The notes: generated by a model not told the origin, from the sequence alone. DNA of 63,928 nt, filler included, from Atractiella rhizophila (GCA_021432655.1; 3 parts of 3 records of this genome joined end to end with filler, not necessarily neighbours in it); one strand, 5' to 3'. Shown: positions 2,854 through 48,100, counted from the whole stretch's first letter. Made by a program: numbers and translations.

Positions 2854-2928
2854 CAGTCTTGCTTCTACACGTTCGTTGCATATAACATAATTGAATCCAG
2901 CTTTGTGTCATTGTCCTCGAGTTAATAT

Positions 2929-12500: not shown

Positions 12501-13309
12501 CCTCGACGGCTACCAATGTAGGGTTGTTGGCGCTAAGCTGAATGTAGCCGGTGGAATCTTCGTTCATGGGAGGAAAGAAAGGAGGACGGGCAGACGTAGC
12601 CCTTGCGGCTTGCCAGACGAAACATGGGGAAGCGGAGCGAGAGGCAGATCCAGCATGATGAATGTCATAGGTGCGCATTTCCGTTGAAACGACAACGCTG
12701 GCTTGATAACTAGAGAGGACGAACGTCCCCGCACCTATCCTGCGGAGAAGGGTCCTTCATAGGAAGAGGCTCCGTGGGATCTTCAAGGGGGGGCGTGTGT
12801 CGCTGGATGATGGAGATCAAAGTCTCTTCGAGCTTCGTCGCCGAGAACAAGTACTCCCTACTGGGATCCGAATCCTCTTCAACAAAGCCATCCCGCACGA
12901 TCTCTTCGTACGCTGCAATGCACTGACGAACTGTCATCCCCAGCCTGCCGAGCATAAGTGCGATCCACCCGCCAGTCGAAGTCCCACAAATGAGATCGAA
13001 GACATCGCAAGGTCGAAGCTCTTCGTCTTCTGGGACTTTGAGAAGATATGCGGCCTGACGCATGATGGGTTCGAGCATGTAAGGAGCTGAGAAAGTACCG
13101 ACGCCTCCGTTGTCGATAGAAAGGATCCGTAGTCCGAGCGGATTCGTTTTCTTAATATTCTCAGGAATTTTGAACACTTTGACGGAATTTGCGGACATGA
13201 AGGGCAAAGTGTAGGATTGCAGTATGAATCTCCAAAAACAGCGATTGGAATCGTGGTTATAGGTAGAAGAAGGAACTGCCTGAGGCCGGTACAATCTAGT
13301 CACTTCCAT
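9517..13309 (-). CDS. Fungal NLR copy 2: patatin + STAND + 6 conserved TPR units + probable tail-anchor exon; spans a gap and carries 1-nt indels
   Basis: Patatin ORFs 13309-12710 and 12678-12346; the NTPase core is in the gap 11456-12261; the helical/TPR part runs 11360-9648. Single-base indels in homopolymers near 12728, 12350, 11361 and 9655 may be sequencing errors or real lesions. Confidence 0.8.
9965..10710 (-). repeat. 120-bp (40-aa) TPR tandem array of NLR copy 2, 6 units
   Basis: The unit ALxRFEEAKELYQVVEDRLGQAHCIRSIGEIEQHRGQMEE is visible as near-identical alternating 60-base lines. Confidence 0.95.
11456..12261. other. Assembly gap inside NLR copy 2
   Basis: Run of N; the flanks match 22946 and 23832 of copy 3. 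Confidence 0.99.
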
Positions 13310-24879: not shown

Positions 24880-25099
24880 TAGCCTTACTTCTATGCGTTC
24901 TTTGCATATAACTTAATTGAATTCAGCTTTGTGACATTGTCCTCGAGTTAATATTCAAGAAAGCAATTGATCGCAACCTCGCCAAACGTACTGCTTTGCT
25001 GCTCTGTTCGTTCCCTTTGTGCCGTCAAAACTGGCACTGTACCTTTCTCCGAGCTGCACGGAGAAGCTTTTTCCCTTTGTTGAATTAAGTCTTGTAACT

Positions 25100-25464: not shown

Positions 25465-25564
25465 NNNNNNNNNNNNNNNNNNNNNNNNNNNNNNNNNNNN
25501 NNNNNNNNTTAATTAATTAANNNNNNNNNNNNNNNNNNNNNNNNNNNNNNNNNNNNNNNNNNNN
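25465..25564. other. Scaffolding gap with artificial six-frame-stop linker TTAATTAATTAA
   Basis: N44-TTAATTAATTAA-N44; the same structure occurs at 53125-53224. Confidence 0.95.
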
Positions 25565-25973
25565 CTTTCGTTCGTCCACGATGTCATCCCATCCAGGACC
25601 ACACATCCCGACTACTACACCGACGATCAGCTCCACCTCAACTTTCCCGCTCTGAAGAAACTGTCAGTGCGTGCGACGTGGGCCAAGAAACGATTCGACA
25701 TGCTCTGTGTTTTGGTGCGCGATGTCGAAATGCGGCGGTTGGACAAACTCGAGAACGTCGAGTTGCGGTTAAGCGATGTACGTCTCTCCTCCGCTGCAAA
25801 TCAGTGAGAAGTTGAGGAGTTGGTAGTATGAGTTCAAGCTGGTATCGTGGAGACGCAATGATTTGGTGAACAGGCTCAAGAAAGCTGGTTTGACCGTGGT
25901 TGTTTGCAACGACGATATGCACGATGAGTCTAGTAGATGGAACGCTTGGAAAGAAGATGTTCTTCGAAATTGA
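25565..25973 (+). CDS. 3' end of an unknown gene (LRR-like, possibly F-box/LRR family); decayed paralogue at about 30490-30780
   Basis: LNFPALKKLSV..LDKLENVELRLSD, intron 25778-25826 (GTACGT..GGTAG), then YEFKLVSW..KEDVLRN*. Confidence 0.45.
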
Positions 25974-27182: not shown

Positions 27183-27502
27183 GAACGAAACAACCGTCGT
27201 GTAGGATAGCTATGAGAGATCGTGATGACAGATGCCTCACGTTCGGAGATGGTGAGCTTCTATTCAGGAAGTGGTCAGCCTCTCAACAAGGGTCGTGATT
27301 TTTACACTGTGAGTATCTTCCAGCACCAACGAGAGACTAAGAAGTGGGATAACTTCTTTTGAAATTGAGACAATGGTATCGTAAAATGACACAAGCCGAG
27401 CAACTGTGAAGAACTGCTGGATAATAGTGTATGTGAAAGACTGAAGTTTACGATAAGTGATGTCAATGGAATTAGATTTTGCGATTTACGGAAAGGGGGA
27501 AG

Positions 27503-27596
27503 TGGTTTATGAGTAGATTGGTTTTATGAGTGGATTGGTTTTATGAGTGGATTGGTTTTATGAGTGGATTGGTTTTATGAGTGGGTTGGTTTTATA
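27503..27596. repeat. 17-bp minisatellite (GATTGGTTTTATGAGTG), about 5 copies
   Basis: Period-17 head-to-tail units start at 27516, 27533, 27550 and 27567, with degenerate flanking copies. Confidence 0.9.
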
Positions 27597-28589
27597 GACC
27601 ATTATCACGACGAGTGGGACGTCACAGACGTGAGTCGCGTCTCACAAGTCTCACGTTTGTATGTGCTTAGACGTGCCTTGCGGCCTGTTCGTTCAACATT
27701 CAACATTCAACGCTCAACGTCCAGCTCGGACGTTCAAGATGAGTAATAAACGAGTAAACCACTTGACACTTGGACTATTTGAGTTCTGTTCTCACGGCCA
27801 CTGGCAGTATTCAAGTTGTCCGTCTGTACCATTGGCTGGTCAATCAATCTCTTCTCTCCCAAATTGCGATGCATAGAGAATACCAGATTAGCTAATACTA
27901 CACCCTGCCAGCTCTTTCACATAGTGCCTAACTTTCAATTCGACAGCTTGTACTAACTTTGAGTAATGAGGCTACAAGCTTGAAGTCTTCAACTGTCAAA
28001 GTCTCCCAGAATAATTAAAGATATGGACACTCATTCTATTACAACTTTTGATACTATGTCGAAAGGAAGCCAACGAAAGCCCTGTGGGTAAAACTTTGAT
28101 AAACCGCACTTTGTGTAGATAAAATTGTAGGCCAAGCAAATTTGACATTAAACGGTGAGAGTCAAGTCAACACGAAATGACAGATACTGAATGTCTTCAG
28201 TGAGTTCCACAACTAGAGAACCCAAACAAAAGCTCTCGAAATCGAACGAGAAGACACATACACAGAGCCATCCGAGAGGAGAGAGACAGGCCGAAACGAT
28301 CGTAGGGAGAAAAGACATAAGGCAGCCGAAACATGAACATCGATGACAACACGAAACCAACGCACGAACGAAAGTTGAAAGTGCAAAGTCTCAGTTGGAT
28401 GCCACATTGATGAATGATGGTTGAGCGTCGAAAGAAGACTGCGAGAGTGATGCACAGGATGGCTAGTCGTGGAAATCGCTGTAGAACCCGAACCAGTTAT
28501 TTTTTGAGCCTTGATACGCAATAATTATCTTTTTATGATTTTCGGAGTTTGGTCAAAGCTGGAACTGTGGATTCTGTGATGACCATGAT

Positions 28590-28968
28590 TCAAGCACGGT
28601 GGAACTGTCCAACTCCTTTCGATGCAAGTATATAAGGACCGGAGGAAGTGACATTACAAATGGCATTACCATTGTTCCTTTCCGCCAGGGCTGCATTGAA
28701 CGCCGTCCCCAAAGCGCTCAACGCTTGCGCTGAAGGTCCTCCAGGATCAGGGGAGGTGGTGTATTCGAATAGCCAAACCAATTCCTCCCTCGAGAAGCCG
28801 GCGACGATGCCGGCAAGCGTTTGTGCTGATCCGGAACTGAGTGGTCTGCCTCAGATTTGAAATCATTCACTTACGCGGCGCGATCTCGACGTTACGCCCA
28901 CTTTCAGACAGAACTTGACCTCCTCGGAATTGTCTTCTAGACTCGTGTCTGGAACAAGGCGTTGACAT
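28590..28968 (-). pseudogene. Orphan module A, left gene (family L), frameshifted
   Basis: MSTPCSRHESRRQFRGGQVLSE.. hits a stop. The family core FSREELVWLFEYTTSPDPGGPSAQALSALGTAFNAA is in another frame. Confidence 0.6.
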
Positions 28969-29488
28969 CGTACGTGGTTTGGAGACTTAGACTGGGATAT
29001 CTCGTAGCTTTGGCTTATCAAGGTGGTGGACTGAGTAACAAGGCGTGCGGAAGACTCAGTCAAAAACACGGCCTATAAGTATACACATGAAGGCTGTGCC
29101 CTCCTGCCGACGAGGAACCTGAATTGACTGGGTGAATTGAAAAGGAACGAGAAGAACGTAAACAATAATCCGTTGATCGAGGTTCTGAGACTTTACGTCT
29201 GAGGCGTCTAAGACGAGTTGAACGCTCTCCCAGTTACGTATTTTTGTGCCAGTGTGTCATCGTTCGTGCGCCGAGTACGGGGCTCGTGGATAAGACATGG
29301 GAATCCTCTAAGTTAGAGCGCAATGCTCAGCTTGAGCGCTTCCACGTTGCCATGAAACGTCCCCGACGTGCTGGAAAACGTCCTAGACGAATGTTAGGTT
29401 ACGAGAGTAGACATAAAAAGCTCCAGAAGTTATCCGAACGTCTCAAAGACAAAGTGGACACAACTTCCTTGGCTAATATTGTCCCATA

Positions 29489-30116
29489 ATGCCGACGCCA
29501 TTCCAGTCACCTACAACAAGAAGATTAACTGCTAGAGGGAAATCTGCAAGTTTTTCTCTATCCCTCAACTAGGCCTAACGAGAGTACAGTTTGTGCACAA
29601 AATCAAGGGAACATTTTGGGTGAACGGCATACTATTTATAGGCAAGAAGGAGGAACGACCAAAGGTTCACATCTGTCAGAGCTATAGGCATTCATCGACG
29701 TGTCATTCTGTCGAGAATGAAAACAACAGCCCGACGTCATCGCTGGCAGAGTCCTCCCTCTTCACCTCATCCAAAAGCTCAACCCCTTCTCCAACAATCT
29801 CATCCCCAGCGGTGCTTCGTCACCAAACCACAGCTGCAGAAAGTGAAGTGGACAATGCGATCGCTGAAAGCGAAATCCCGGTTGCACGTAATTTGCGAGT
29901 CGATAGCTTGGGAATTTATGTCGAAATCGAGAATACAGAGCACTTTTTTACCTGGGACCAGTTCGAACAATTTTTGCTAGACGAAAGAAATACTGCGCAT
30001 CTCCCACCCGACGACGTTGTACGGCGGACCGCTGACATTCTGCGAGGTGATTCTCTCCTCCCTACGATGTAATGTCACTGACAAAAGAAGCAGAGAACAA
30101 GAAAGTTCAACAGTAA
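29489..30116 (+). CDS. Orphan module A, right gene (family R), 3 exons
   Basis: Exon 29489-29545, GC-AG intron to 29589, exon to 30047, intron to 30093, then ..LRENKKVQQ*. Carries the conserved PVARNLRVD..GIYVEIE..EHFFTWDQFEQFLLD..HLPPDDVVRRTADILR domain. Confidence 0.75.
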
Positions 30117-31665
30117 CATGAATGTGTCGCAAAATCTAAAGTATTACCTGATTTTCCAAGACAATCCAACAGTTCTGCAGTGTGGCCAGTCCTTCTGCAC
30201 GACTGTTGGTTCTTGTTGTTGCATTGCATTCTAACTAGTTCGAATTTGTTTATGCGTGCATCATCCACAAACACAGTTGTATATGTAGGGGGACAGATTG
30301 TTTCTTCGTCTCTTTGACTAGACTCAAACACTATATCAGTATTACAATGGGATTTTATAGAATATTGCAAAAGAAACAGGGAGATGAGTAGACAGTTGCT
30401 TCCATAAAAGCAGGTCAAGGACGTTACGCACTGCATGGTCTACTGCGTTGAGATAAATTTAAAGTAGCGCGCTGCTTCCACACTGGGAATGGAGCAACTC
30501 CTTGTCACTGCTCCGCTGTCTTCACTATTGGGCGTACTGGACACTCACCGTTGTCTATGATGCCGACGACCTGCTCCACTCCCATTTTCCCGCTCCGAAG
30601 AAACTGTCTGGGCGTGCGACGTGGGTGAAGAAACGATACATTTGTTACCACGTGCTCAGGGTTTTGGCGCGCGATGGAGGCTGAACAGCGTACATTTCTG
30701 CCTTAGCTGCAAATCAGTCAGAAACCAAGGATATTTCAGTGGTCGCAACAACTTTAGAGCTCGGAGGCGGACGTCAGCGGACGATGCATGAAGAAAAGAA
30801 GAAAAGACGGTGGTACCCATAGAGAGACAGCAGGGGAAAGGTTGTCAGAAAAGTTGGACAGTGATTACTATCGCAATCGAATGCATTCAATATTCAATCA
30901 TCCAGACACTTCGAGTTTAGGCGAATTTAGGCTTCAAGCGTCAAGCTTGTCAAGGGTCAGGTTGACCAGTTCTCACGAGTTTGCTGGACAGGTTTTCATG
31001 TCTTGAAACGTCCAAAATTTTACATGAACTGGAGTGCGCATTACGCTTCCAAACGTACCAACAATTCCGGACACAACCGACAGAGAGAGGCCATCCGTGT
31101 CCTGAAGGTAAAATTTTGACAGCCAAGCACTTGTCTGGGTGAAACGGGAAAGGATTTAACATTGTTAAAGGTGGTAGGTTGGGGTCAAATTGGATGCAGG
31201 GCACAGAATGTTGTCTCCTTCTGCAACTAGGGAAACCGAACAAGAAAAGGAATGAGAAGACATGCAGACAGAACCATCCGAGACGAGCGAGACAAGCCGA
31301 GACTGTAGTAACGATATCGAGTAGAGAGCAGCCAAAACACGAACGTGGAGGACTGACTAGTGGAGATGAATGCTATGTTCGCCAGTTGAGGTTGAAGGTT
31401 GAACATTGAACATTGAACGTCGCACCGTCGGATCAGAAAGGGAGGAATACAGACTGCAAAAAAAGTGGAGCAGGTGGTTAGTAGTAAAACGGGTATGCAG
31501 GTGAACTTACATGCTTTACGACATTGGTTTTAACTTTTTTTTGTTGTATTTTGAAAGTTTGTCACAGAAATTGATACCTCAGTCCTGATGGATTGAGCTT
31601 AAGGGTCGTGAATCTGCCCAATTCATTTTGAAAAAGTTATAAGAACTGATGGAAAAAGGAATAAC

Positions 31666-31989
31666 TCAGCACGCGCCAGAGGCCTTCTCTGCCGTCGCCC
31701 GATTAAAAGCCGCTCCCAAATCGCTCAAAGCTTGCGCCGAAGCGCCACTAGGATTGGATGAGGCAGCATATTCGAGGCACCTAGCCACCTCCCTCGCTGA
31801 GAACGTAGTGACAAGGTCGATGAGGCTTTGAGCTGATTCCCATGATGAGAAGTACATTTCCAACTCTTGGAACGACTCACGAGCTGTTGTGGAGGGATTA
31901 TTATTTGTGTTCCGCTCAGACAAGGCTTGACGTCCTCGAGCGCGACGTCTCCTGGTCTGTTTGCGGGAGTGAGAGCGAGAAGGGGCCAT
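31666..31989 (-). CDS. Orphan module B, left gene (family L)
   Basis: 107-aa ORF with a basic N-terminus RRRRARGRQALSERNTN and the core CLEYAASSNPSGASAQALSDLGAAFNRA. A short terminal exon is possible. Confidence 0.65.
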   Translation of the reverse strand: MAPSRSHSRKQTRRRRARGRQALSERNTNNNPSTTARESFQELEMYFSSWESAQSLIDLVTTFSAREVARCLEYAASSNPSGASAQALSDLGAAFNRATAEKASGAC

Positions 31990-32588
31990 ATCTGTTCAGT
32001 TTGAGGCGACGCCCCTCGACGAAAGTGTCAAATCTTTTGATCAAGAGGACGATTAGAGTGCGGTCTAGACGTAGTCTTCAAGGGTCTCTACTCCCGAAGT
32101 AGCGCGGGAAAAGCCAAAGCTGTGGTTGGTTGTCGAGGGAGTGACGTTGTGATCTAATGGGGCTCAGTATTTCGAAAGAGCTCTTAAATTTAGAAGACGA
32201 GAATAACAGAATTGTCGAAGTGATCGACAACGCCCCACACGTCGAAGACGACCTGAGCGCTCAACGTGTTTCCGTGTTCGTGCATAAAGGTGTCACCGTT
32301 CGTGCGTCCGGTACGCGCCGTGAAGGTTGGCCATTGAACGTCCTGCTTCCAATTACGATTCCTAGCCTCGGAATTCCCCGTTGGACGAGATTTGCAAGAC
32401 GCCTAACACGTCTTGGAAAGATTTGTTGAAGGAATTTGCTCACCCCCTTCGTTTGGTCCGCGTCTTAGATGAGTTCCAACTTGGGTATATAAGCAAGTTC
32501 GGGTCAAAGCTTGAAGTTCTCAGATTTTGAGGAATCAGCTTGCCGGTTTTTTCATAACCATTTATTGCACGTGACTCGATCATTTGGG

Positions 32589-33119
32589 ATGAATCCTTGG
32601 AAACATTCTGTGACTTTTAGTCGGAAAATATTAGTATGTTTATCTTCCACTTAACCAGGCTAACGAGTTGCAGATTGACTCCTACAAAATTGTCAAAAAC
32701 ACTGTTCGCATCCAAATCCCAAGTGCGAAGAAGCCAAGTGCGAAGAAGCCAACGGGGGATGGGCACTCGCCCACGCCTACAGCGGCTCCCACATCAGTTT
32801 CTCAGGACCCGACTGCGTCGTCCTCCAACTGCAATGTCAATCATGGCGATAATGGCGTTAGCGAAACGCCGGTTGCACGTAATCTGCGCGTTGACGAACG
32901 GGGGATTTATGTTGATATCGAGGGCCGAGAGCACTTTTTTACTTGGGATCAGTTCGAACAATTTTTGCTTGATCCAAGGAACACGGAGCATCTCCCTCCG
33001 GACGACGTGGTTCGTCGCACCGCCGACATTCTGCGAGGTAAAATTGCTCCTTCCCCTCTCCCTCTTGATAGGACTGTTGGCTGATGTATGGAGCAGAAAA
33101 TAAGAAAGCCAAGGCATGA
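32589..33119 (+). CDS. Orphan module B, right gene (family R), 3 exons
   Basis: MNPWKHSVTFSRKIL, intron 32634-32673, conserved C-terminal domain, intron ending 33096, then ..LRENKKAKA*. Confidence 0.75.
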
Positions 33120-33819
33120 GCAAAGGGGGTTTGTTTATCGGCACAGGGCTACACTACCGCCTCATCTCCATAAATGTCATATGTGTTGCGCGACTGTTAA
33201 GCTCCTGTGTACCTTCCATGCTTCAGATGGTCTACTGAAGTATGCATCGTCCTCGTGGGAATCTAGAATCCGAGTTTTGTTCGTCGTTAACGATATTAGA
33301 GTAAGTATGACGCATGAGACGACCCTTAGTTATCTCTTGACACTATGTCAAACTATTTTGAGCAGCATTCTTGTAATAAAGATGCGACGACGTCGTAATA
33401 TGAGAGTAAGAAGAAACAAGAAGAGAAACAGATGATGGAGTCAACAAGAATAGTGGGAGTTGACGAACGCCTCGTCTACAGGTATCGAAGACTACCACTA
33501 GCAGTTTGCGATTCATGGAATGGTAGCTGTCTAGAATAAAAGCAACGAATACGTTTTGCGAGCTGAGCTGCAGCAACCTAAAGCAGAGGATGTTGCAGCG
33601 AAGTACTCTACGATCAAGGCGACAGATCCGGGAACCATCAATTGATATCGAATCGACGGTTCTCATCTCCCTGACTTGAACGTAGTGTAGGAAATAGGTA
33701 TTGACCACCTACTTCCATGAAGCCTTCAACCTCAGCAGCACGCCATTACACCATTTCGACCTGTCACATAACTGCGTTGAGTGTCGACCGTTGAGAAAGT
33801 GAGTTGACAAGAGTTAGCT

Positions 33820-34740
33820 AGTTGGTCAAAGAAACTGTTCAGGATAACATTCGTTTTCTTTATATCCTTCTTCAACCTCGACCTCTCCATTCGTGAGGCA
33901 GTCATCACACCAGGAGACTCCTATACATCGATGGGGGATGCAGGAACTGAGGGAGAGGTCAGAGAGAAGGAAAGCCGTACCACCCTCTGCCCAACCTCCA
34001 ACCCAGAGCTGCGGTCGTAAAGTTATCTTCCCAGGCAATACTCTCAAACCCCAAGATTCTACTCCGACGTTATTCTCAGAGTCCACCTTCTTTACTTGGT
34101 GAAAGTGGTAACTGAACAACATACCTATCAGAGTGCGGACTTGCTTTTGAGCTAGTTTCTGGTCCATCCTTTTAATAGCTGAGCAACTGAGCATACATAG
34201 ACAAAATGAGGCGTACTCGTAGATGCATATCCACAATACTACACCGCCAAAGATCGTCTTGACAAAAGTGTACGACGCAGAGAGGCGCTTTTCTTCCTTC
34301 CGTCACTCCCGTCAGCAACGTTTACAGACCAGCGTAGGCGAGGAGCATATTACACAGATCGTTCCTTCACCTGTTTCTCCTCCTTCATCTCAAAACGCCG
34401 TCGATAACTCGACGACTCCTCTCCTTCACAGCTTCAGCTTCATCCGTCTCAGTCCACCCATGCTTTAAACCATTACATAACACACTCGTCAGACGTCTGG
34501 ATATGAAGTTAGTTTGAGGGAATAGTACCCACATCTCGATTCATTGCTCCCGAGACGACGCTCGAATTCTTCCACCATCATATGCATGCATATCATATGC
34601 TTCTTCACCTACTTCCTTCTCCTGCTCTTCTGGAGCCCATGGTCGTCCTTGAGTTGCGGCCGTGAGCATCACTTGATCGTTCGACATGCTTCGCGCGCAA
34701 TCAGCTATGGCATCTCCGTTAAATTGTGATTCCTAACCAT
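33820..34740 (-). pseudogene. Decayed phosducin-like (TXNDC9-type) gene copy
   Basis: Collinear with 44033-45010: LCVVHFCQDDLWRCSIVDMHL and KLAQKQVRTL, with deletions and frameshifts. Confidence 0.75.
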
Positions 34741-34869
34741 ATAGGTAATCATATCTTCTCTCAAGTTCTTACACACTCTCGAGTTTTGGACAGGCACCTG
34801 AACCTGGTCATCCTATCCTATCAGTTCTTGGCATGAATCATAAGACGCACTTTTGAGCCATCACACCTC

Positions 34870-36550
34870 CCTCACCATGCACAATATATTGAAATGTATT
34901 CTACCAGCATAACCCAAATTCTGGCCCCTTTCTGAACCTGCAAGGAAATTTTATTCTGCAAGGGTTTAAAAAATGTGTTTCGTCCTGGACTCGAACTGTG
35001 GGGTTCAAGGGGCCATGCCCCTTGCGAGTGGGTATAAACATCCGATCGGAACGTCTGAAGTGAAGCGTAGTTGCAGACTCTCACACCACTTCCTCCCAAC
35101 TGCACAATGCGAGGGACTAGAAGCAGCCGCCATGGCTAGTGTCATACAATAACATACCGCTACCACGTATGGCGAGACGTCACGCGTTCGACTCCGAACA
35201 CTGTGAAGAGTTTCCCTGGCTGGTGAGCCCAAACTTTGGATAGAGGAGGGTGGAGTGGTTTCTCGTGGGTCGTCAGGGGCTGAGAGGAGAGAGCGAAATA
35301 CATTCGTTACCTGTAAGCCCAAATTCTACTCTGACTTGAATGGGGATTGTGTGCCACGTCCGCTCCAGCTCGATTCTGGCTTCCTCATCCTCAAATGATG
35401 GCTTCGTGCATGCAGGGAATGAAATCTTGCGCACTTTCCTTAGTAGTATACACTTCTCCGCGCAACCATACAGTGATGTCTTTGGGACAGTTTTGCTGGA
35501 AGGAGTGTGCTAGCCAACGCAAGTCGTGCCGTTTCTCTGACTTCGTGGCAGATCCCTCTTCTATTTGGTGCATTGCAGCATTACCCGTCGGATGGTTTCA
35601 ATCATAGAATTCGTTTGGTTGTTTGGTTGTTTGGTTGTGGTTTGGGCACAAAGCACCTCCCTCCAACGGAGAGCGCGCACAGCATTCGTCGAGCGGGAGT
35701 TACCTCTGATTTGAATTTGTGCCATAGCAGCATCTCCAGAGTGCGAGTAAAGCGAGGGCCAGGATGGATCCTTGATTGACATGGGCCCGTTTCCCCTCGA
35801 GTCCCCCGCCTCTAAACTCTTGACGTTCTGCCGCTGATGGTGATTGGTGAGGGTTTTTGACCAAACTGTCTTCGAATTGAGGACCATCATTCATAATCAG
35901 TGCATACTTGTCAGCGACAAAAGGGGTGGAACTGAAGAGTTGTTCTTTTGTGCGCCGCTTTTGCCAGTTGATGGATGATTAAGTTTGGGAGCTTCATCCT
36001 CCCGTTGCGTGTGCACTTGACATGGAGCGCTGGCAGCGTACCATCAGGAAATCGGGAAAGAGTCCCACACCCATCGGTATGATGATCGTACTGGGTAGTG
36101 TTCTTGAGTTGCTGTTTTGTCTCAACAAACTTCTCGAAATTGAGATGGTCAATAATGACAGTCACATGAGTGAAACTTCCTCCTTGTAGTTCCCTAGGAG
36201 CGCGATGATGATAGCACCTTGTTGCGTTGTGGACTGGCTTGAGGCAAGGCGGAAAGCAAAATCAGCTACACCGGAGCTGCTGGTGGTAACAACACTGGTC
36301 ACTCGGAAGCTTCCGTGATCAAACCTCAGGCTCAGCTCCTTACCCTGGCGCAACTCTCTCGTCGTATCTTTTCACAATAGATACCGCGCTCCCGTATAGA
36401 CAGAAGATCCCACAGCGACGCTTGGTAATGTTGATACGGGACTGCAGCGAGTGGAATATGTACGGATTGTAGCCAAAATTGGGATTGCGATAGACAGAAG
36501 ACAGCAATAGTCATTAGTTAATCAGAGGGACCAGAACAACGTAGAGGACA
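34870..36550 (-). mobile_element. Possible highly decayed DNA-transposase remnant (pogo/DDE_1-like)
   Basis: A chain of broken minus-strand ORFs; PLEPHSS..FFKPLQ loosely resembles the LPPHSS..QPLD..F.PLK motif. No terminal repeats were found. Confidence 0.2.
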
Positions 36551-37011
36551 CTTTCTCATCATGCGATGTAAGCGCGACGGACGTGGACTGCATCGCTAAT
36601 AGTAAACTAAATACTTGACACTGAAGGGTTCTGTTAATCGTCCACTTAGAGAGTCTGAAGCTTAATAGCAATCCTTTTTAAGATACATCTGTAACGATGA
36701 CAGTGCGGTAGATACATATTTGGTGAAAACATCGATACGGTAATGCGTCTCGTTTTGCAAGCAAACTTGCGCAGATCTGCTGAATTTCAAACACAACAGC
36801 GCATCAAATGATGCTATGGATTGTGAAACAAAATTAAAAGCAACCTGCTTCCAAAATTCAAAAAGGCTACAGACAAGACTACTGATTTGATCGGTCTGAT
36901 CTCGTTAGAGAGTGAGGTTGGAAAGAAGGATCACGATGGAGGGGAGGAGAATATCATGGCTCAACATCTTTCTATCCATCCACGTAGTCAGCATTAGTCT
37001 TCTGTGCGAAT

Positions 37012-37395
37012 TTAAAGGATGGAGATAGTACCAACATTGGTCACACGTGTCGGGATCGGTCGGCAGATCACTGGGTGGTTTTGGGGTGTGAGTAGGGGGA
37101 AGAGGATCGTTGGCTGGCCCACGTCATTTAGAGTCGATATGCAAGGAGGTGAGGAAGACTCACCATTTTTGTTGGTGTCCTCGAGGATTAATGCCCGTAC
37201 GGCAGTGGCGATTGGCGTTCCAACGGCGTATGTGAGGGAAAGCTGAAGGATCTGGGCTAGAGGAAGTGACCCCATGATCGCATTGTCATCAGAGCCTCTG
37301 AGTCTGAACTGGCCGTTAATCGGTGTAGGAAACGTCCTTAAGTTCGGCCTAGTACCGTGACCTTGACCCATTCTGTCTGTTGAATATCCTGACAT
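37012..37395 (-). CDS. Small orphan ORF (family D), second copy
   Basis: Similar to 26967-27182; probable GTGAGT donor near 37163. Confidence 0.4.
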   Translation of the reverse strand: MSGYSTDRMGQGHGTRPNLRTFPTPINGQFRLRGSDDNAIMGSLPLAQILQLSLTYAVGTPIATAVRALILEDTNKNGESSSPPCISTLNDVGQPTILFPLLTPQNHPVICRPIPTRVTNVGTISIL

Positions 37396-38594
37396 GTCAT
37401 GTCAGTGCCTGAGACAAAGATGATCATAAGCGTCCTACCAAAATGAAATGGAGAGGCAGGCGAGATATTAGTCTTTTGCTTCCTGAAACTAAGATAAGGA
37501 TATCTTGACAATGCCTCGGTTGAAGCGGATGTGAGTGTTGTGAACGATGGTAATTAGCTAACTGATTGACTGAAGAGTGAACGTTTCAAAAGCTGGATTG
37601 ACTCCTAGTCCAATCCAAGAACAAAAAGAATTCGTAAAAAAGGCGTCTCTGTTGCAACGTCAGGGTTAGGGGGAAAAGGTGGATTCTTGAGTTAGTTATA
37701 AAGGGAGTGGTTTACGATACGGACGAGCGTGACGTCTCATGTAGCTCGTGCGTATCTCGTAGCTTACAAGAACGAGATCTTGTGAGTACCGAAATCCAGG
37801 TCTGTAACGAACGAAAGGAACTCGGCAAGCCGCTGTTACGATTTTGTTGCACCTAAGGTACACCCCATGGGACAACTGACTTTGTGACAATGAGAACTAT
37901 TTGCCTGCCACATGCCACAAGCTGCTCAAAATGATCAAAGTGCACATCCAGTTTACTTCGAAAAAAGGCCAACCTCCCAACTGGCTGAAACAGGCCACGC
38001 CACCTGATGTATTGGAACCTCTTTCAACGTCGAAGTGTTCGTCGGTTTACAGAAGATGGACGCCTAGTTTTGAGGCTACTCTGTGCTGTCATTCATAGCA
38101 TAAATGCAGCTGCATTAAGGTTCTAGGTACGCCTGACAAGAGCTATCAAATGTTTTGATTTCCACAACCTTTAACAGAAATCACTTATTGTGTTTAAATC
38201 CGCCTATGATGGAACATCAAAAATGGAGGATGCGGGACACCTTCTTGTTCCAGAACCACAGAAACTGAGCACTATTACAAGCGGAGCCTTGCGAGAAAAC
38301 GGGACAGGGAACAACGGCAACGATATGAAAAGCAGCGCAAAAATGACCACAACAGGTTGAGCAGGTGACGATCTGGTTGAGGAATGAAATTTGCCCTGAC
38401 GGGCGTCGAAACCAATCAGAAACAGGGAAATATAGTACAAGAAGGGATGCAGAGAGGGCTTTACAGTAATCCTAAAAGTGTGGAAAGCAATTGGACTCCA
38501 TCTTTTTTGACTCTGAGGTACATATTTTTCGATTTTTTTGCATGTCGAATTTTTGTCAAGAAAAACAGTCCTACACCATGACGTCTCAAGTTTT

Positions 38595-38988
38595 CAAGGA
38601 TGGTTACCCTGTTCAATCCCTTGTCGGATTTATATGGACCCAACCAATGCGAATATGAGAGACTTGGACCACTCACCATCCTGGTCCTTTCCGACTTAGC
38701 TCGAAGGTATGCGGCTCCCAACTCGCTCAGCGCTTGTGCTGAAGGACCCTCAAGATTGGAAGAGGCGGCATACGCGAGGCACGCAGCCAACTCTCCTATC
38801 AAGAGGGCAGTGACTAGGCCCAATTTCGAGGGTGAGAAGAAATCCGCTTCAGATCCTTTGAACGACTTACAAGACACCACAGAGGTATTGCTTACGTTCG
38901 TGTTGCGCTCGGATAACGCTTGAGGTCCTTGAACTCGCCGTCTCCTGCTCTGCTCTTCGGAGTGAAGTCTGGATCTTGGCATAGTCAT
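38595..38988 (-). CDS. Orphan module C, left gene (family L)
   Basis: MTMPRSRLHSEEQSRRRRVQGPQALSERNTN..CLAYAASSNLEGPSAQALSELGAAYLRA. Probable intron GTGAGT..AACAG followed by GNHP*; unspliced, the ORF would end at 38461. Confidence 0.65.
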
Positions 38989-40260
38989 CCGTTGCGTTTC
39001 GACACGGTCTTTGGGAAAGTGTTAATTCTCAGTTTCAGCCTTGAGTGTATTATTTGATCGATTGAGGACTGATGTGCCAGCAACTCTGCTTTCTCGAAGG
39101 AATTTCCGTTGGTAGAGCCAAATTGTGAGGACTGACATATTCAGGGGGGGCTCTGTTGATATAGTACAAAACATGACGGGCGAAGAGTCGAGAAGGTCGA
39201 GGTCTACGTCCGGAACGTCGAAGACGTTGCCGTTTCCGAATTTACGAGTGAGCCCTCGTGCACCTCGTTCGGAGCGTGAGAAGCTGATTATCATACTCTC
39301 AGTTCCCCTGCATTCTATTCGTGGAGACTGCCAACGTTCTTTGCAATCCCAAACATCGGTTGTCATTGCAGAGTTGCAGGGTTCAACTTGGATCCTCTTT
39401 GATTGGGTTGCATCGGTATCGACGCCAGATGCATCGTTCCAGGGAAGCCCGCAACATTTAGACGGTGCCCGAAGGAGAAGACATTCGATTGTTCTCGGCT
39501 GTCCAGTTCGCTATCTCTCGACTAACTTCCAGCTGGAGCAACCTGAAGTGCCTCAGCTCATAGTTTCGGAGGAATGGCCTGATTGCCCATTTCCCGACGA
39601 TTGGCCAGCGGTCAAAGAGAGAACCGTCCTGTGTTCGCTTTGTAAAGGCATTGGCATTTAGCAATTGTCTAGGTTTTCTTTGAACAAAGTTCAAGTTTGA
39701 GGTTGAACCCCTGCAATTACGAGCGTAGGCATCGTACCAGTTAAGTGTCCTGCCAAGGTGGATTTGCAAGCTGGAAGATATCTCAGTCAAAGCTTTAATT
39801 CCCGAAACTGAGCCATGAAGTCGTAGACTGGATGTACCGATTTCGTGACCAGGTACAAGTTGAGAAGAGCTGCAAGCTTGAGCTGAAGTTCCTGCTCTCG
39901 TCGGACTGATCAGTTTCTGATTCTGTTTTTGAAGCGATCAAGACCTTTCCAGATTGCTAGAAACTTGAGAACGCTTAATATATTTTGGGGAAGGAAGGAC
40001 GTGGGGCTCGTCTCGCGTTTGTACATACCCGTGGCCTCATCATTAATTGATAGGTGTAGGTTTGCGCAGGCTATGGGATACCACAACGTTCGTCGTTTGC
40101 GAGCTGAAATTGAAAGAAACTCGATCAATGACCATCTCGGGGTTGGGGTTGGTTATGGACGTAGGACTATCATTACTCGGATTTGGAACGAAAGTACAGT
40201 GCACAGACGGATTGTGGAAGTGCAACGAAAGTTTTCCATAAGAAGTGCTAACAAAACAAG

Positions 40261-41449
40261 TAGGGATGGCTATCGGAGTCGAATCGTACCAGCTACGCCG
40301 GGTCCGATGGCCAGTCGTGTATCGATCGAAGACAAAAAAGGACCACGACTTACGATTCGATACGAGTACGGCTCCCAAGGCGTATCGAATCGCCAGCGTG
40401 TGGATTTTACGACTACGATACGATACACGATTCCATGCGCACGTTTTTGGGGGAACGGCACTAATAGTAAGCTATTCACATCACTCTCAGCTGCATGTGC
40501 TTACAGTCCTCAGCCCCATGGCTGCTGTCTGCCGCCAGCATATAAATCCTCACTATCTTCTCCCCGTTGACGTCGCGCCACCATGGCAACACTGGACATT
40601 CTTGGGCTAGGAAAAGGTCAAGGACTTCAGTGGATATTGCGAAGAGGAACAACGAGGATGGGACTGCACTTAGCCAGTCCAAGAAGCGAAAGGATGAGGA
40701 GTCTGAGTGGGTCTTCTCTCCTTACAATGGACGCTTGTTGATTGAAATTGCACACAGACACCAAAAGATAAGCGGAGTTCGAAGCCAGGCAAGAAGTCGA
40801 TCACTACATGAAGCAGCCACAACTCCCTGCTTCGGTCTTATCTTCGAATTGTACAAGGTTCAATCGACTGCCTCGCTGCCCGCATGGTCTCGGATGGCAA
40901 GAGACATACTCTCCATCCCTGGTTTGTCCTCTGCCTCTCCTCTACTATGTTTAGATTTGATAACTTCAAAGGGTGCGCTGTTGGTGTGGAACGGGTATTT
41001 TCAGGTGCAAGGGACACAATCGGCATCCGAAGACATCGTTTAAAGCCCTCCACTATTCGTCTGCTGATCATTACGAAGGCTAAGCTTAGGTTAGATCGGA
41101 CAAGAGAGAGGATGGAGCTGTTGAGGAAGCTGGAAGAAGCTGAAAAGATGCACGAGATGCAGGTTCTGGCCAAAGCACAGAGCTGAATTTTGTCTTTACC
41201 ATAACCATCTTGTATTTTATTTCATAATGCAATACAGGCAATTACTGTCTATTAAAAGAGAATGGTCGTCAGGCACCTTCCAGCAACCCGTACCGCCGAT
41301 CGACCTACGACGCCGAAATCGTATCGGAGGCTATATCGAACGAAGCTGATTTTGAGCTACGACTACCGATACGATACGACTACGGCTTATAAGCCGCCAC
41401 GAATCGACCAGGGCCTCTCCGATACGATACGATTCGATAGCCATCCCTA
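40261..41449 (+). mobile_element. Non-autonomous hAT DNA transposon (1189 bp)
   Basis: Perfect 15-bp TIRs TAGGGATGGCTATCG / CGATAGCCATCCCTA; 8-bp TSD AAAACAAG (40253-40260 and 41450-41457); subterminal CGATA repeats; hAT dimerisation domain LPAWSRMARDILSIP..VGVERVFSGARDTIGIRRHRLKPSTIR. Confidence 0.95.
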
Positions 41450-42183
41450 AAAACAAGGGACCTTCCTCCCAAATTCTGACATTGACCACACACAAGGGGT
41501 ACTCCGGTTAGTCATGGTTCGAAATGCACTTGTAAATGCAACGAATCATGAAAGGAACGAACCTTAAAAAAAAAAAAAAATTGTCAACTCCGTCCTAGTC
41601 CCGCACTGTCGGAAATGAAGGCGGCATTGGAGAAGACCTGGTACCGGAAATGCGGACGGATGAATGTTCCAAATTCATCTCCAGATCAGATCGAGCTCGC
41701 GTTCAGGTCACTGAGCTGTCAGCGCACGTCGGCTGGGAAACAAAATTCGAGAGATACGGTCTTCTCGTTCCAGGAAGCAGCTATCAAAGACAAGGCCAAC
41801 GTTGGACTAGTAAGGGTTGAATTAGGAACGCGATACTTACACAAATAGAGAACGAAAAGAATGAATTTGAAAAACACGAGACTTGAGTTGGGACAGTTGC
41901 GTTTTTCGAGTCTGTACGTTTTATGCAGCAAGGGATTATGTGTGTTAGGGGAGCTCCCAATCCCTCAACCCTCAACCTTGAACGAGGAGCGTAGAGACGT
42001 CGCAGACGTCCCACATGGACACATCACATATAGTTCGAACGCGGAACTGAACTGCATGTCCTCTGTGGTATATATTCTACCAGTATCTATCCTGCCATCT
42101 ATCATCCTCTGAATCCACAGCAGTCTATCCACATCTTTCTCCTGGTTCAATTCCGTAAATCTCAAGAAAGCGCGGCTACAACG

Positions 42184-42865
42184 ATGCCTCTCAACATGCG
42201 TCATCGGTACCACATCCAACGACCCTTGATAAACTCTGTCACGTTTACAGTAAACATACTTGTGTGTCTGTTCTCTTCCTTTCTACCAAGCTAACGAGAG
42301 CTGCAGGTGGTCCAACCTTACATCAAAGTGAAAGAAGCGGAGTGGTTGAGACGTATCGTGACGGTTGTGAGGAGGCACACAGGAGGAACGAACGAGAATG
42401 CCTCCTTTATCGAGCCTCGTCACAAAATCTTCGACAACTCATGCGGAGCAGATTCCTCTTTCTTCACTTCATCAGAATGCTCTCGTCCTTCTCCGACAAT
42501 CGCAACCAGGACGGTGCCTTGCACCCTAACCGCCGAAAGGTTCAGGTCATCGACACCAGCGCCTCCCGAATGCTGGATCAGTCATGGCGATGTGGACCAC
42601 AACATGAACCAGAGCGAGACTCCCATTGCGCGCAATCTCCGAGTTGATCAATTGGGGATTTACGTCGAAATCGAGAGCCGAGAGCATTTTTTTACTTGGG
42701 GTCAATTTGAGCAGTTTTTGCTCGACGAAAACAATACAGCGCATCTCCCCCCAGATGATGTTGTCCGCCGCACCGCCGACATACTCCGAGGTGAGCTTTT
42801 CTCTCTTCTTCATTTTAGAACAGTGGCTGATGGGGGAAACAGAGAACAAAAAGGCTCAGGCATGA
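42184..42865 (+). CDS. Orphan module C, right gene (family R), 3 exons
   Basis: MPLNMRHRYHIQRPLINSVTFTVNIL, intron 42262-42306, conserved domain, intron ending 42842, then ..LRENKKAQA*. Confidence 0.75.
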
Positions 42866-43264
42866 TTGAAGAAATTGTTCCCACCATTGTGGCATCACGT
42901 GAATTTTTTTTCTTTCTTTCTTGTAAGATTCGTGTACCTCCCTTTGGCGTCTAACCAGATGTCATTTCTCCTGTATTTCCCCCTTGGAACGCGGCTCGAA
43001 GTATGCATAGCTCTCATCATATTCTGTAAACAGACCCTGTTGTTCTTGTTGAAATCAATTATAGAGCGTTTTTAAGGCAAACAAGGCCATGAAGTTCTTC
43101 ATCAAATCTAATCTCACAAAGAGACAGATTTTCCCTCTCAAGACGCCAGGCCCATTTCCCTTCTCCGTCCGCCTTTCTTCCCCGTCTGTAAATTGTTTAA
43201 GGCAATAAAATAAAGTTTAACTTCGGAGCCGGCTGGCTGTGGTGAGGATCATAGCAAGCAAGGC

Positions 43265-43552
43265 TTAAACTACCAGTTGAGAGTAAATCGTGCAAGTAGC
43301 ACTTGAGAGTACAGAGGCCTTAATAATCCAAAGTGAGGTCACACAACAGGAAATATGTCGATAATCTGCTTTTTCAAGCTCCCTTTTCCAGATACTACAT
43401 TCTGTTTGATTGCTGGCTTTGTGGTTCCCTTGACAGAGAGCACACTTATGGTGGATGTGTATGCAAATTGATGGTGGCTCAACCAGATCCATTTGCTTTA
43501 TCATATGAGAAGCATGTAGAGGAGGCTCTCCTATCCTCGAATCCATGCACAA
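43265..43552 (-). mobile_element. Fragment resembling a LINE ORF1 (gag-like) zinc knuckle
   Basis: KCALCQGNHKASNQTECSIWKRE (C-x2-C-x3-H-x-A..C). The block has no counterpart in module B. Confidence 0.4.
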
Positions 43553-44032
43553 TTAACATCTGTTCCGAAATTGATTGCTAAAATGGAGATATGTGAGGAC
43601 CGAGTAATATGGGAGTTAGAAGGAACATCAAGCGAGTAGGAACGCCGGAGAGTGACAATCGCCACACTTGTTGGTATCAAGGACGAGGACGACAAAGCAG
43701 CTTGTAATCAGTGGAACTGGCAGTTCTACAATTGTGGATATGAGCACACCTTGCGTGTAAAGGGACTGGCAAACAGATATGGAGCGTGGGAAACGAAATA
43801 AATATGATAAAGACGGGCGGAGATGCGAATTGTCGAGTCAACCGAGTAAAATCGAAATCGGCTCGACGATTTTCATCCCCGACCAGAACGTGACATAGGA
43901 GACAGGCAGTGACCCACTTACTTCGCTAATCACATACCCAATGATTTTTTCTGTTTCTAACCTCCTCTCAATGCACTTGATTCCTTGTCGACGTATGGGG
44001 AAGGCGAGTAGACGGAACGGTTCAGATTGTGG

Positions 44033-45010
44033 TCATAGATCCCATTCTTCGTCACTGTCTGGGTTCTTCACATCCTTCTTCAATGTAGACCTCTCCACTT
44101 GCAAAACACCTGACCATCATCCACACTTATCAGATCCTCATGATGGCGGATGAAGATGTAGGTAGAGCGGAAGAAAGGAAGCCGCACCAGCCTCTGCCAA
44201 CCTCCACTCCAAGGCCTCAGTAGTAAAATTGTCTCCGCCCGGCAATCCTTCAAAACCGACAACTCTGCAGCATTGTCAGCGTCCATTATCAACGTCCACA
44301 TTCATAGCATCGTGAGAAGGGAGCGGGAACGGCCTACCGATCCTTTGACACTCCATCGATGAAAATCATCACGCATGGAAGCACTTGAATGGAGAGTTTG
44401 GTGACAAGGAAGGGGGAATTCAGCACGTTGATTTTGAGGAACAGGGTACGGAAGTGTTTTTGAGCCAGTTTCTAGTCCAGCTTTTCTGTTAGGAGGTTTC
44501 ATCATGGATAGGAAAGGAGTCCCACTTGGAGATGCATGTCCACGATTTTACACCGTTTAAAATCGTCGTGATAAAAGTGGACGACGCAAAGTGGCGCTTT
44601 TCTTCCTTCCATCGCTGTCGTCAGCCTTGTTCACACTTCAATAGCGACGACGAAGGACGTACACAGATCGTTCCATCACCTCTTTCTCCTCTTTTATCTC
44701 GAGGTATTGCCCATGACTTCCCTCCTTCATCTCTCTTAGTCGCCCCATCCTTTAAATCATCGACACAATGATCAGTCGTCGTTAAACGTGCTTGGAGATA
44801 AGAAACTCACTCTCGATTCATTGCTTCGAGACGACGTTCACGTTCTCCTGCCATATCATATGCGCCTTCATCTATTTCCCTCTCCAACTCCTCGAGCAGC
44901 CCATCATCGTCCTCTTGAGTTGCTGCCGTGAGAATCGCTTGGTCCTTGGATATGCTTCGCGCACGATCGGCCACCGCATCAGTTGAATGAGCGAACACCT
45001 ACCTAGCCAT
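44033..45010 (-). CDS. TXNDC9: Phosducin-like / thioredoxin-domain protein (TXNDC9/Plp1 type), multi-exon
   Basis: DDDGLLEELE..RERRLEAM, CVVHFYHDDFKRCKIVDMHLQ, KLAQKHFRTLFLKINVLNSPFLVTKLSIQVLPCV, GFEGLPGGDNFTTEALEWRL and the acidic end PDSDEEWDL*. Confidence 0.85.
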
Positions 45011-45184: not shown

Positions 45185-48100
45185 ATGAGAGCTTTCCCCA
45201 GGCTCTCTCAGATCCACCACCACCTCCACACCTCCAACTTCTCCAGCGTCAAGCTCACGAGAACAGGGATCACTCCAGCGCTGCAACAGCGACTCAGATA
45301 TCGAACAATATCCTCAAAGATGGTCAACCAAGCCCAATACTTCGCAGACCTTGAGCCACCCTTCTGCTCCTTGGCGGTCATGAAGAGCTTTGACGGATTG
45401 ACGAAGGAGGAAAAGCTTTACGCGCATTGGATTTGTTAGTCCACCTTTACCCTCTAGATCCTTCCTTTGCATAAGATACTCATTTATGCTTACTTGTGGG
45501 CAGCCAAAGCGAGCTGGGCTGGTGCACGTGTGATAATGGTCTGGTTCTCTCTCTTGCGGCATTCATCTTGAAAGGAGCTAAATGAATATGGCGAATAGGA
45601 GCAATGGGCTCCTCACGCTAACTCCCTATACGACTTCCTGATCTTGCTCTTCACCGATCCTTCTACTGGCACCATCTTTGCAGACCTGGAGGAGGTCAGA
45701 ACGAAGGCAGGTGTGGAGCAAAATGAGTTCAAATATTTCGTTGGATACACCGCGCAGGTTCGTCCTCACCTGCTTGTTGTTCACGAGGCAGGTACTGACA
45801 ACGATGTGTGGTTCATAGTCCCTTTCCAACCTCGTTAATTACAAAAATTTTGGCAACACCAAATTCATTCCTCGCAGTTCACCCTCCACAATCGACAAAC
45901 TTATCTCCTCCCATCCTGCAAGCTCCAAACTTTCCAAATACTGGCCAAAGGTATTCATCTTCTCCCTGTGAAATTGGCGTTTTCTCAATTTGATAATTCT
46001 CAAACCCAGCTCAAAGAAGCAATTTACTCCCTTGATCCAGAACCCATTCTTCAAATCGGAAAACCATCGTCTGGACACCTCTCCAACATCTATCCTGACT
46101 CTCCAAGCATCAGTGATGCAGAAGTGGAACAAGTCTCCGAGCTGATGCGAAAAGAGGGAATCGAGCCACAGAACACTCGGTACGCTCATCGTGCTCTCTT
46201 CTGCTCTTCGCCTCCTTCCCGTGGTTCTGGGATAAATAATGACTGACTGACCCGTCTCAGGTTGAGGAAGGAGGGGAACGGAAAATTCACTCTTCTGATC
46301 GCAAGTTCAGAGGAGGGAGAACACGAGAAGAGCCCTCTGAAAGGAGATGGGGTGGAAGTGAAGATCCAACTCGGTTCGTATTTTCCTCTACCTCGCCTCA
46401 CTCGGGGGACACTGATGATTTGAGATGAGCAGGAGACTACAAGGACGCAATGGCAAAGGTAGTCTCCTCCCTCGAGGAAGCGGTAAAATGGGCTCGTGCG
46501 TCTTCTCCCTCCATCCACCGAAAATTCCAATTTATCCCAACTCACAGAGGATGAGAACCGCGCCGGGATGCTGAAGGACTACATCACCTCCTTCCGTACC
46601 GGTTCCGTCATCGCCCATCGTGAGGGATCGAAGAAATGGGTTAAGGATGTGGGGCCAGTCGTCGAGAGCTACATTGGGTTTATCGAGGATTATTTGGACC
46701 CTTATGGCTCAAGGGCGGAGTGGGAAGGTTTTGTGGCTGTCGTTGACGTATGCATTACTCTCTCTTCTGAGTTATGAGTTAGACGGAGACTGATTGGCTT
46801 CTTGACTTACCGATTGGATTGGGTTCGGTGGAAATAGAAAGAGCAAAGCAAGCTCTTCAAGCAGATGGTCGATCAGGCACCGGAGTTGATTCAGGTTCTT
46901 CCTTGGGGGAAGGATTTTGAAGTAGACGAATTCAAAAAGCCAGACTTTACCTCGTTGGAGATTCTCTCTTTCGCTACCGGTGGAATACCAGCTGGAATCA
47001 GTTCGTTTCCTCCTTTCGCTGAAAGAAGGCTTTGTGACGAAAGATGTGATGCCTCCCAGATATCCCCAACTACCACGACATCCGTGAGAATTTCGGATTC
47101 AAGAACGTCTCCCTCGGGAACGTGATTGGCGCCTCTGCACCAACCGAACCCAATACTTTCATTGCTCCTGAAGATGATGCCATTTATACTCAGTGGAAGA
47201 AGAAGTCGTGGGCCATGCAGGTGGCTTGCCACGAGCTTCTGGGTAAGTAGCTTACGTCCATCTCACTCTACTTGTCTACTTCCGGAAACTCATGTCGATT
47301 GTACACAGGCCATGGAACTGGAAAGCTCCTGACAGAGGACAGGGACGGAAACCTCAACTTCGACAAGGAGAAGGTCATCAATCCAATCACCAAAGGCAAG
47401 GTCAAGACTTGGTACAAGCCAGGCGAAACTTGGAGCACTTTCGGTGGAGAGATCAGCTCGAGCTTTGAAGAGTGCCGAGCGGAGGTAGTTGCTCTTTTCC
47501 GTTCGTCACTCAACCCCTACCCACAGCCCAACAAGGGAGCTGACCTCAGTTCCGTCTGGCAGTGGCGAACGATAAACGTATCGCGAAGATCTTTGGTGTC
47601 GAGACGGAGGAAGACGTGGATCTCATGCAGTATACCACCTTTTTAGAGATGTGCCGTGCTGGTGTCCGAGGCTTGGAGTGGTTCGACCCGAAGACGAAGA
47701 AACATGGGCAGGCGCACATGCAGGCCAGATGCGGTATCTTCGTTCGTCAACCCTCCAACCTTTCAACGGGTGCAGGCTAATGGAGCCGGATGCAGAAATG
47801 GCTCCACTCTAAGGACATTGTCACTCTAGAGGAAAAGCGGGATGAAACCGGAACCCTTGTAGATGCTCACATCAAGATCGATAGAGAAAACCTGAAGAAG
47901 AACGGTCAAAAAGTCGCTGGCGATCTCCTGCTCCTTCTTGGAATCTACAAGTCGACAGCAGACCCCACGGCGAAGAGCTTCTACCATGATCTGACCACTC
48001 CTCATCAGAAATGGCAGACAGAGCTGAGGGACCTTGTTGTACGTCCAATTCCTTGCCCCTCTAATTTTTTGGCTGCGATTTTAATGCTGATGGTTTGACT

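Follow-up and report, generated by a model that had tools for sequence, protein, structure and literature searches.

HD1/HD2 homeodomain mating-type pairs are arranged in tandem in the A locus of mushrooms; they have many alleles in a population, and their products form heterodimers only across different alleles. Two-gene allorecognition loci are represented by sec-9/plp-1, with its patatin-NLR partner. A third layout is that of AvrLm10A/AvrLm10B in Leptosphaeria maculans and SIX5/Avr2 in Fusarium oxysporum, where divergent neighbouring genes for small proteins are co-expressed and their products interact; the AvrLm10A/SIX5 family is secreted, has clade-specific cysteine patterns and occurs in ascomycete pathogens, in more than 30 species, according to PMC10346447. 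Here, we describe three head-to-head gene pairs of the basidiomycete Atractiella rhizophila, LA/RA (28590-30116), LB/RB (31666-33119) and LC/RC (38594-42865), each named for its left and right gene, in a stretch of 63,928 bases (the window, meaning the whole of the DNA that was analysed). The pairs are a real, expressed, old and species-restricted two-gene cassette with a new small domain. They are best read as a tandem array of an old cassette of ~3-4 kb, whose two genes are known only from A. rhizophila in the databases searched.

By layout, AvrLm10A/AvrLm10B and SIX5/Avr2 are the nearest described case, although the signal peptide and the cysteine pattern are both absent here. Like the AvrLm10A/SIX5 family, as presented in PMC10346447, the Atractiella genes form a multigene family of neighbouring, divergent small-protein pairs with several pairs per genome (three in the window). 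They differ in coming from one basidiomycete species and in having no signal peptide, cysteine pattern or sequence similarity to that family. The HD1/HD2 arrangement is matched by head-to-head pairs in tandem and by a conserved domain next to a variable N-terminal part, but the search at E<=1 returned no homeodomain, both proteins are much smaller, disorder is modelled for the variable part and a second, non-allelic cluster exists. With sec-9/plp-1 the locus has in common that its paired, linked genes lie in a region that also contains Patatin-NACHT-TPR genes, whereas the pair genes themselves carry no NLR, HET or SNARE domain. NACHT-TPR, as expected of a HET/NLR incompatibility locus, occurs only elsewhere in the window and in none of the six open reading frames (ORFs) of the pairs, and the NLR genes of the window gave no tblastn match to the pair proteins.

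The sequence-only reading of this DNA had proposed three divergent pairs, and both coordinates and translated searches agree with it in order and strand. Partners are divergently transcribed in all three pairs, and tblastn against the whole window (E<=1) placed the right ORF translations at exactly three places each and the left ORF translations likewise, with a single stray match (E 0.92) for all six ORFs. Five start codons lie where they were first put; for LC, the annotated ATG is at 38982 and the proposed 38988 is an in-frame upstream ATG. A repeat search of the DNA returned one direct-repeat family, 180 nt in three copies at 29869, 32860 and 42613 (100/80/77%), and together with blastn it shows that repetition at the DNA level is plain only for the C-terminal exon of the right genes. 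The stretch that holds the pairs, between N runs (25564 to 53125), is 27,560 bases long.

Each right gene has two introns, as first proposed, in the models of RA, RB and RC (Table 1). All introns of the pair genes have GT/GC..AG ends, intron 1 of RA being GC-AG, and CTAACGAG precedes the acceptor of intron 1 in all three right genes. Database counterparts are available for four of the six genes (LA=P0008, RA=P0001, RB=P0004 with 148 residues, LC=P0007). No family search returned a database protein for LB or RC, and both of these genes are intact. LB encodes 91 residues when a 48-nt intron (31833-31880) is removed and 107 residues unspliced. For RB, P0004 uses an intron 1 of 25 nt; an alternative of 40 nt (32634-32673, GTATGT..CTAAC..CAG) agrees with RA and RC and with the block of run X4 (record 17) that begins at 32674. 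We favour the 40-nt form, which yields 143 residues, because of this block start. Within RB, a 15-nt tandem duplication (32725-32760) encodes SAKKP twice, and the X4 contig 32674-33035 has 15 gapped bases, as might be expected if the X4 sample lacked one SAKKP copy.

Transcript evidence was taken from Logan contigs of four runs placed on 27500-43500; these contigs carry neither strand nor expression levels. The library type of run X3 is unrecorded, and we treated it as RNA-derived because short stretches bounded by GT..AG or CT..AC are missing from its contigs. One X3 contig (record 9, 908 nt) joins 29032-28875, 28825-28669 and 28614-28050 with CT..AC ends, showing both LA introns and an LA 3' untranslated region (UTR) of ~540 nt, to 28050. 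The intron-2 joint of RB, 33035>33095 (GT..AG, cut +2), is present in X3, X4 and X5. X3 blocks mark the limits of exon 2 in RA (29590-30044, record 10) and in RC (42307-42788, record 14), and a further X3 block on the 3' part of LC (38200-38609) ends at the predicted exon limit. X4 contigs cover LC at 38685-38813, with the joint 38609>38685, as well as the 5' end (31893-32148) and the 3' region (31262-31453) of LB. In total, RNA-like contigs cover parts of six of six pair genes and four splice joints are seen directly. Expression, on which the sequence-only reading had made its proposal depend, is thus found: according to the contigs the pairs are transcribed and spliced.

We then compared the right proteins. 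The family consists of six proteins at E<=0.001, among 80 candidates from 5.8 billion sequences, all from A. rhizophila. Including RC, they fall into types A (RA, P0002), B (RB, P0005, P0006) and C (RC, P0003). The C-terminal domain is 80-98% identical among the seven members over 56 scored columns, and identity over the N-terminal halves is 20-35% from type to type and 41-66% among members of one type. The near-invariant domain described earlier therefore stands, whereas the description of the N-terminal halves as barely alignable holds between types and fails within them. In an AlphaFold2 model of RA, built from a seven-sequence alignment, the predicted local distance difference test (pLDDT) is below 50 for residues 1-115 and 81-89 for residues 116-178. 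The modelled C-terminal domain contains strands 118-123, 128-132 and 135-139 and helices 141-149, 151-154 and 162-177, and the N-terminal half, rich in S, T and P, models as disordered. Maximum 19-residue hydropathy of the right proteins is 0.35-1.24. No convincing fold relative of the C-terminal domain emerged, the best being Z 3.0 among 48,161 chains (VIA) and E 0.6 with Foldseek against the PDB, with a best Z of 2.5 on second look. Several Foldseek rows pointed to RRE/PqqD-like folds and were lost on that second look; comparison with COMM, chromo-like and RRE/PqqD-like folds gave Z 3.0, E 0.6 and Z 2.5 at best. A metagenome scan for the right family produced 350 pattern matches, of which 0 were confirmed.

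The left proteins, of 87-91 residues, have an arginine-rich N-terminus and keep the motif R-x-x-G-x-Q-[AV]-L-S-E. The isoelectric point (pI) of the first 30 residues is 10.1-12.0, in agreement with the basic N-terminus and conserved core first noticed in them, and the alignment bears out both features. Maximum 19-residue hydropathy is 0.56-1.88. An exhaustive phmmer search with LB against 1.84 billion representatives found two proteins, LA and LC only, and a profile search found two among 1,128 candidates, again LA and LC. The model of the left protein, from three sequences, has helices 35-40, 44-54 and 62-82 at a mean pLDDT of 56.7; the small core downstream of the basic N-terminus is probably helical. 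In the metagenome scan, one of 245 pattern matches passed tblastn (L001 1183-1341, E 6e-6). We rejected it as a chance match: the contig has 64% G+C, the alignment contains a stop and covers only the arginine-rich N-terminus that had seeded the pattern, and the locus has no right-family match.

The sequence-only reading recognised neither family, and our searches leave both as orphans, with no relative beyond A. rhizophila in Pfam, PDB sequences or wider databases or, for the right family, in Foldseek/VIA. In hmmscan of the six ORF translations against Pfam-A (E<=1), none reached a curated cut-off (best E 0.014), and there was no homeodomain, HET, NACHT/NB-ARC or toxin-like match. PDB sequence searches with both profiles gave nothing below E 0.8, the ESM Atlas gave no usable match by features for either protein, with all structure rows below threshold, and Rfam gave 0 matches over 27500-43500. 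The hidden Markov model and structure searches with the conserved domains matched no known transposon or housekeeping family. No signal-peptide-like or clear membrane segment was found in either protein by hydropathy and pI, no dedicated predictor being used, and neither family alignment has a conserved cysteine column. The two families are not relatives of each other, the hhalign profile comparison giving a probability of 0.3%. The locus-tag prefix BT69DRAFT had no match in the papers searched, and the titles and abstract openings of papers on the A. rhizophila genome and on Atractiella mating contain nothing on the pair genes.

Next, we estimated age and selection with Nei-Gojobori counts on codon alignments of the window's own copies. 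Synonymous sites are saturated in every comparison (proportion of synonymous differences, pS, 0.63-0.76), and the copies are therefore old. The non-synonymous distance (dN) of the right C-terminal domain is 0.09-0.12, and its ratio to the synonymous distance (dS), omega, is 0.03-0.08 where dS is computable. The near-invariance of this domain reflects purifying selection and not recent gene conversion. The left genes have omega values of 0.24-0.36. In the right N-terminal halves dN is 0.7-1.0, with dS saturated and hence no ratio; fast change and drift are inseparable for this reason, and no excess of non-synonymous change, as a sign of positive selection on the variable halves, is demonstrable.

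Conservation extends beyond the coding exons. Four blocks follow one another in the same order in units A and B: 138 nt of the left 3' UTR, the left core, 76 nt of intergenic DNA and the right domain. The intergenic block bears out the partial conservation proposed earlier for the DNA between the genes of A and B. Its opening motif, CGTCKAAGACG, has three matches in the 63,928 bases, all on the + strand and none outside the three pairs (expected 0.04; 0/100 shuffles reached three). We drew the pattern from A and B, and the copy in pair C is therefore the independent one. Co-regulation, which the sequence-only reading had inferred, is plausible, since a short divergent promoter region is common to the pairs and contains a conserved motif. 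One X3 contig (record 10, 944 nt) continues for 346 nt beyond its block starting at 29590. If these 346 nt run through exon 1 without an intron, the RA transcript would start near 29200, at the motif, and ~170 nt would separate the RA and LA starts, the 5' end of the LA contig being 29032. The RA leader also contains an upstream ORF, with its ATG at 29353 and its TAA at 29487-29489; this stop overlaps the RA start codon by one base, its last A (TAATG). The block in the LA 3' UTR lies inside the X3 transcript contig of record 9. The possibility that the 138-nt stretch downstream of the left genes of A and B codes for a third protein was rejected, as it shows no codon periodicity (substitutions per phase 13/46, 13/45 and 12/47).

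Table 1. Positions of the pair genes, conserved non-coding elements and other features of the locus.
Feature	Position	Strand	Details
LA, left gene A, 91 aa	28968-28875, 28825-28670, 28615-28590	-	Identical to database protein P0008; X3 contig
RA, right gene A, 178 aa	29489-29545, 29590-30046, 30094-30116	+	Model reproduces P0001; X3 block
LB, left gene B	31989-31881, 31832-31666	-	ORF and splice model by LA homology; X4 contigs
RB, right gene B, 143 aa	32589-32633, 32674-33037, 33097-33119	+	Spliced contigs; P0004 nearly equal
LC, left gene C, 87 aa	38982-38871, 38813-38677, 38608-38594	-	Model reproduces P0007; X3 and X4 contigs
RC, right gene C, 194 aa, intact	42184-42261, 42307-42790, 42843-42865	+	X3 block; nearest P0003, on another contig
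Conserved intergenic block, pair A	29205-29279	+	Opens with CGTCTAAGACG, 237 nt upstream of LA ATG; blastn 70%/76 nt to pair B
Conserved intergenic block, pair B	32240-32315	+	Opens with CGTCGAAGACG, 251 nt upstream of LB ATG
11-nt motif, pair C	39216-39226	+	234 nt upstream of LC ATG; partly conserved bases follow
Conserved non-coding block, LA 3' UTR	28210-28347	-	Counterpart 31224-31353 below LB; blastn 69%/142 nt
Non-autonomous hAT-type element, 1,189 bases, between LC and RC	40261-41449	.	Inverted repeats TAGGGATGGCTATC, target duplication AAAACAAG
Segment below RB	33379-34714	.	Homologous to 43588-44980 below RC; 69%/593 nt and collinear blocks (blastn)

The surroundings of the pairs contain further tandem duplicates, namely three Patatin-NACHT-TPR NLR genes (1-2852, 12713-13384 and 20171-24912), two Methyltransf_32 genes (6989-7663 and 17729-18454) and two Peptidase_M49 genes (45839-47643 and 50058-52162). 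As first described, the pairs adjoin the NLR cluster across a gap: the NLR genes lie within 1-24.9 kb and are separated from the pairs by the N run 25465-25564. The duplicated unit is larger than the two genes, because the segment below RB matches the one below RC (Table 1); the alignments of the two contain stops in all frames. A short repeat is shared by 30563-30723, between RA and LB, and 25620-25810, upstream of pair A (77%/114 nt and 82%/34 nt), and X3 and X5 RNA contigs have loose ends near the RA-LB copy, at 30586 and 30637. Between pairs B and C, the stretch 36700-37630 is transcribed from the - strand and spliced, with joints 36971>37036 (CT..AC) and 37387>37438 and with contigs in X3, X4 and X5; gene modelling of this 36.7-37.6 kb stretch yielded no clean reading frame.

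Each right type has a paralogue elsewhere in the genome, with four right-family genes on other contigs. GenBank accession endings in the window are ..493 (LA), ..494 (RA), ..496 (RB) and ..498 (LC), and a second right-gene cluster on a contig of 242,761 bases has A' (..237), B' (..238) and C' (..241). As the accessions (KAH8930237-KAH8930241) run in that order, the second cluster keeps the A-B-C order of right-gene types. The fourth gene, B'', is on a contig of 123,509 bases (around KAH8926426). As far as the test reaches, it is not a haplotig of the window: of 51 M49-peptidase hits two are from this species, and both lie on the window's contig.

The element between LC and RC has terminal inverted repeats that agree at 14/14 bases and an 8-bp AAAACAAG on both sides (40253-41457), the two features expected of a hAT insertion. 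Its match to Dimer_Tnp_hAT is weak (E 0.0063, 16.7 bits against a cut-off of 21.4, 26 residues), and the element is too short for a full transposase. It has multi-copy depth, and in run X1 one DNA contig goes straight from 40260 to 41461 and lacks the element; the insertion may therefore be polymorphic or heterozygous. X1 DNA contigs over pair B (30615-32919) are identical to the window at a depth of 80-84, and those over pairs A and C have a depth of 138-173 with 1-6 differing sites per kb. The bin 35510-36043 has a depth of 78. The dip over pair B could reflect a hemizygous or very divergent second haplotype, as a single unexplained contig observation.

We propose, as an evenly balanced judgement, that the pairs encode a co-transcribed, lineage-restricted two-protein intracellular module. 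A short bidirectional promoter with a retained element would drive the left and right genes, and the two proteins, produced jointly, would cooperate inside the cell as the two subunits of a module. The constant working or docking part is predicted to be the right C-terminal domain, and the right N-terminal halves may be disordered, drifting linkers and not specificity determinants. A role in the nucleus or in association with nucleic acid is suggested for the arginine-rich left protein by its basic N-terminus; it might bring the right domain to the nucleus or to nucleic acid. Functional pairing is supported by the head-to-head order, which is kept in three pairs despite saturated synonymous sites. 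The module reading also draws on the purifying selection on both genes, the upstream motif, the RNA contigs, the modelled right domain, the basic left N-termini without a signal-peptide-like segment and the second cluster. Several points weigh against the module. Genes that lie head to head and are copied in a single block remain paired even with no functional link, and the contig data come without co-expression levels. In pair C the spacer is 3.2 kb after the transposon insertion and both genes have RNA contigs, so close spacing is unnecessary for transcription. The left model is of low confidence and too poor for a fold search. Finally, no left-family protein is annotated beside the four right genes outside the window, although this is weak evidence because the annotation also missed LB and RC (two of six). 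The lack of recorded left genes beside those four, together with the larger duplicated unit (a 3' UTR block, and 33379-34714 against 43588-44980) and the duplicated Patatin-NACHT-TPR, Methyltransf_32 and Peptidase_M49 genes, would be expected if the partners were two unrelated orphan neighbours in an array made by general tandem duplication, with a pairing that has no functional meaning. We consider this account possible but the less probable one, since all three copies of both genes have remained intact under purifying selection while synonymous sites became saturated, and the upstream motif stands at a similar distance in all three pairs.

Accounts that give the pairs a role in recognition or in attack are unlikely. 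In a recognition or conflict cassette (allorecognition, mating-like or poison-antidote), one protein would do harm or send a signal, the protein encoded next to it would neutralise or recognise the first, and specificity would lie in the variable halves. The sequence-only reading had drawn such analogies from the layout, which recalls tandem HD1/HD2 pairs, and the species-restricted families, the distance of 4 kb to the Patatin-NACHT-TPR NLR genes and the X1 depth over pair B, which a hemizygous or very divergent second allele could explain, point the same way. Set against these are the absence of any homeodomain, HET, NACHT or toxin-like match at E<=1 and the single, unexplained nature of the depth dip, and the arguments for mating, incompatibility or drive come down to the layout and that dip. 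Nor did the proposed 'variable specificity ends' hold up: the halves model as disordered (pLDDT <50), their change is inseparable from drift with dS saturated and a non-synonymous excess not demonstrable, and a second, non-allelic cluster contains a diverged paralogue of each type. An equally doubtful variant is a homeodomain-free basidiomycete self/non-self or drive system, in which the C-terminal domain would be the docking site of the helical left protein, matching would depend on the fast-changing halves and the copies would differ between nuclei of one individual, as pair B's half depth would suggest. Slightly less credible again are cooperating host-directed effectors exported without a classical signal peptide. 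The AvrLm10A family likewise has multigene, divergently transcribed, co-expressed and interacting pairs, as PMC10346447 describes them, and spliced RB contigs occur in runs of other studies (X4, X5), but the N-termini here are basic and not signal-peptide-like, the maximum 19-residue hydropathy of the right proteins is 0.35-1.24, and there is neither a cysteine pattern nor a sequence match. That the genes are passengers or coding genes of a transposable element is very improbable. The region is repeat-rich and a hAT-type element lies between LC and RC, but inverted repeats and a target duplication mark this element off as an insertion of its own, the pair ORFs contain no transposase or transposable-element domain, and the copies are old and under purifying selection. 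X1 depth on the pair genes is 80-173 against 1,000-4,400 in repeat bins, with the caveat that several contigs add up to 566 in the bin 32840-33373, where the RB C-terminal exon lies.

If the pairs were a recognition or conflict system, they would be a new type for basidiomycetes; if they were only a co-duplicated orphan pair, they would be ordinary fungal genome content. The 63-residue right domain, which has no recognisable fold relative, would be a worthwhile target for structure determination. Comparison of the three pairs reveals two families that have no relatives in billions of sequences and that were kept paired, expressed and selected through several old rounds of duplication, and the Atractiella pairs offer a clean case for how lineage-specific gene pairs arise and what they do.

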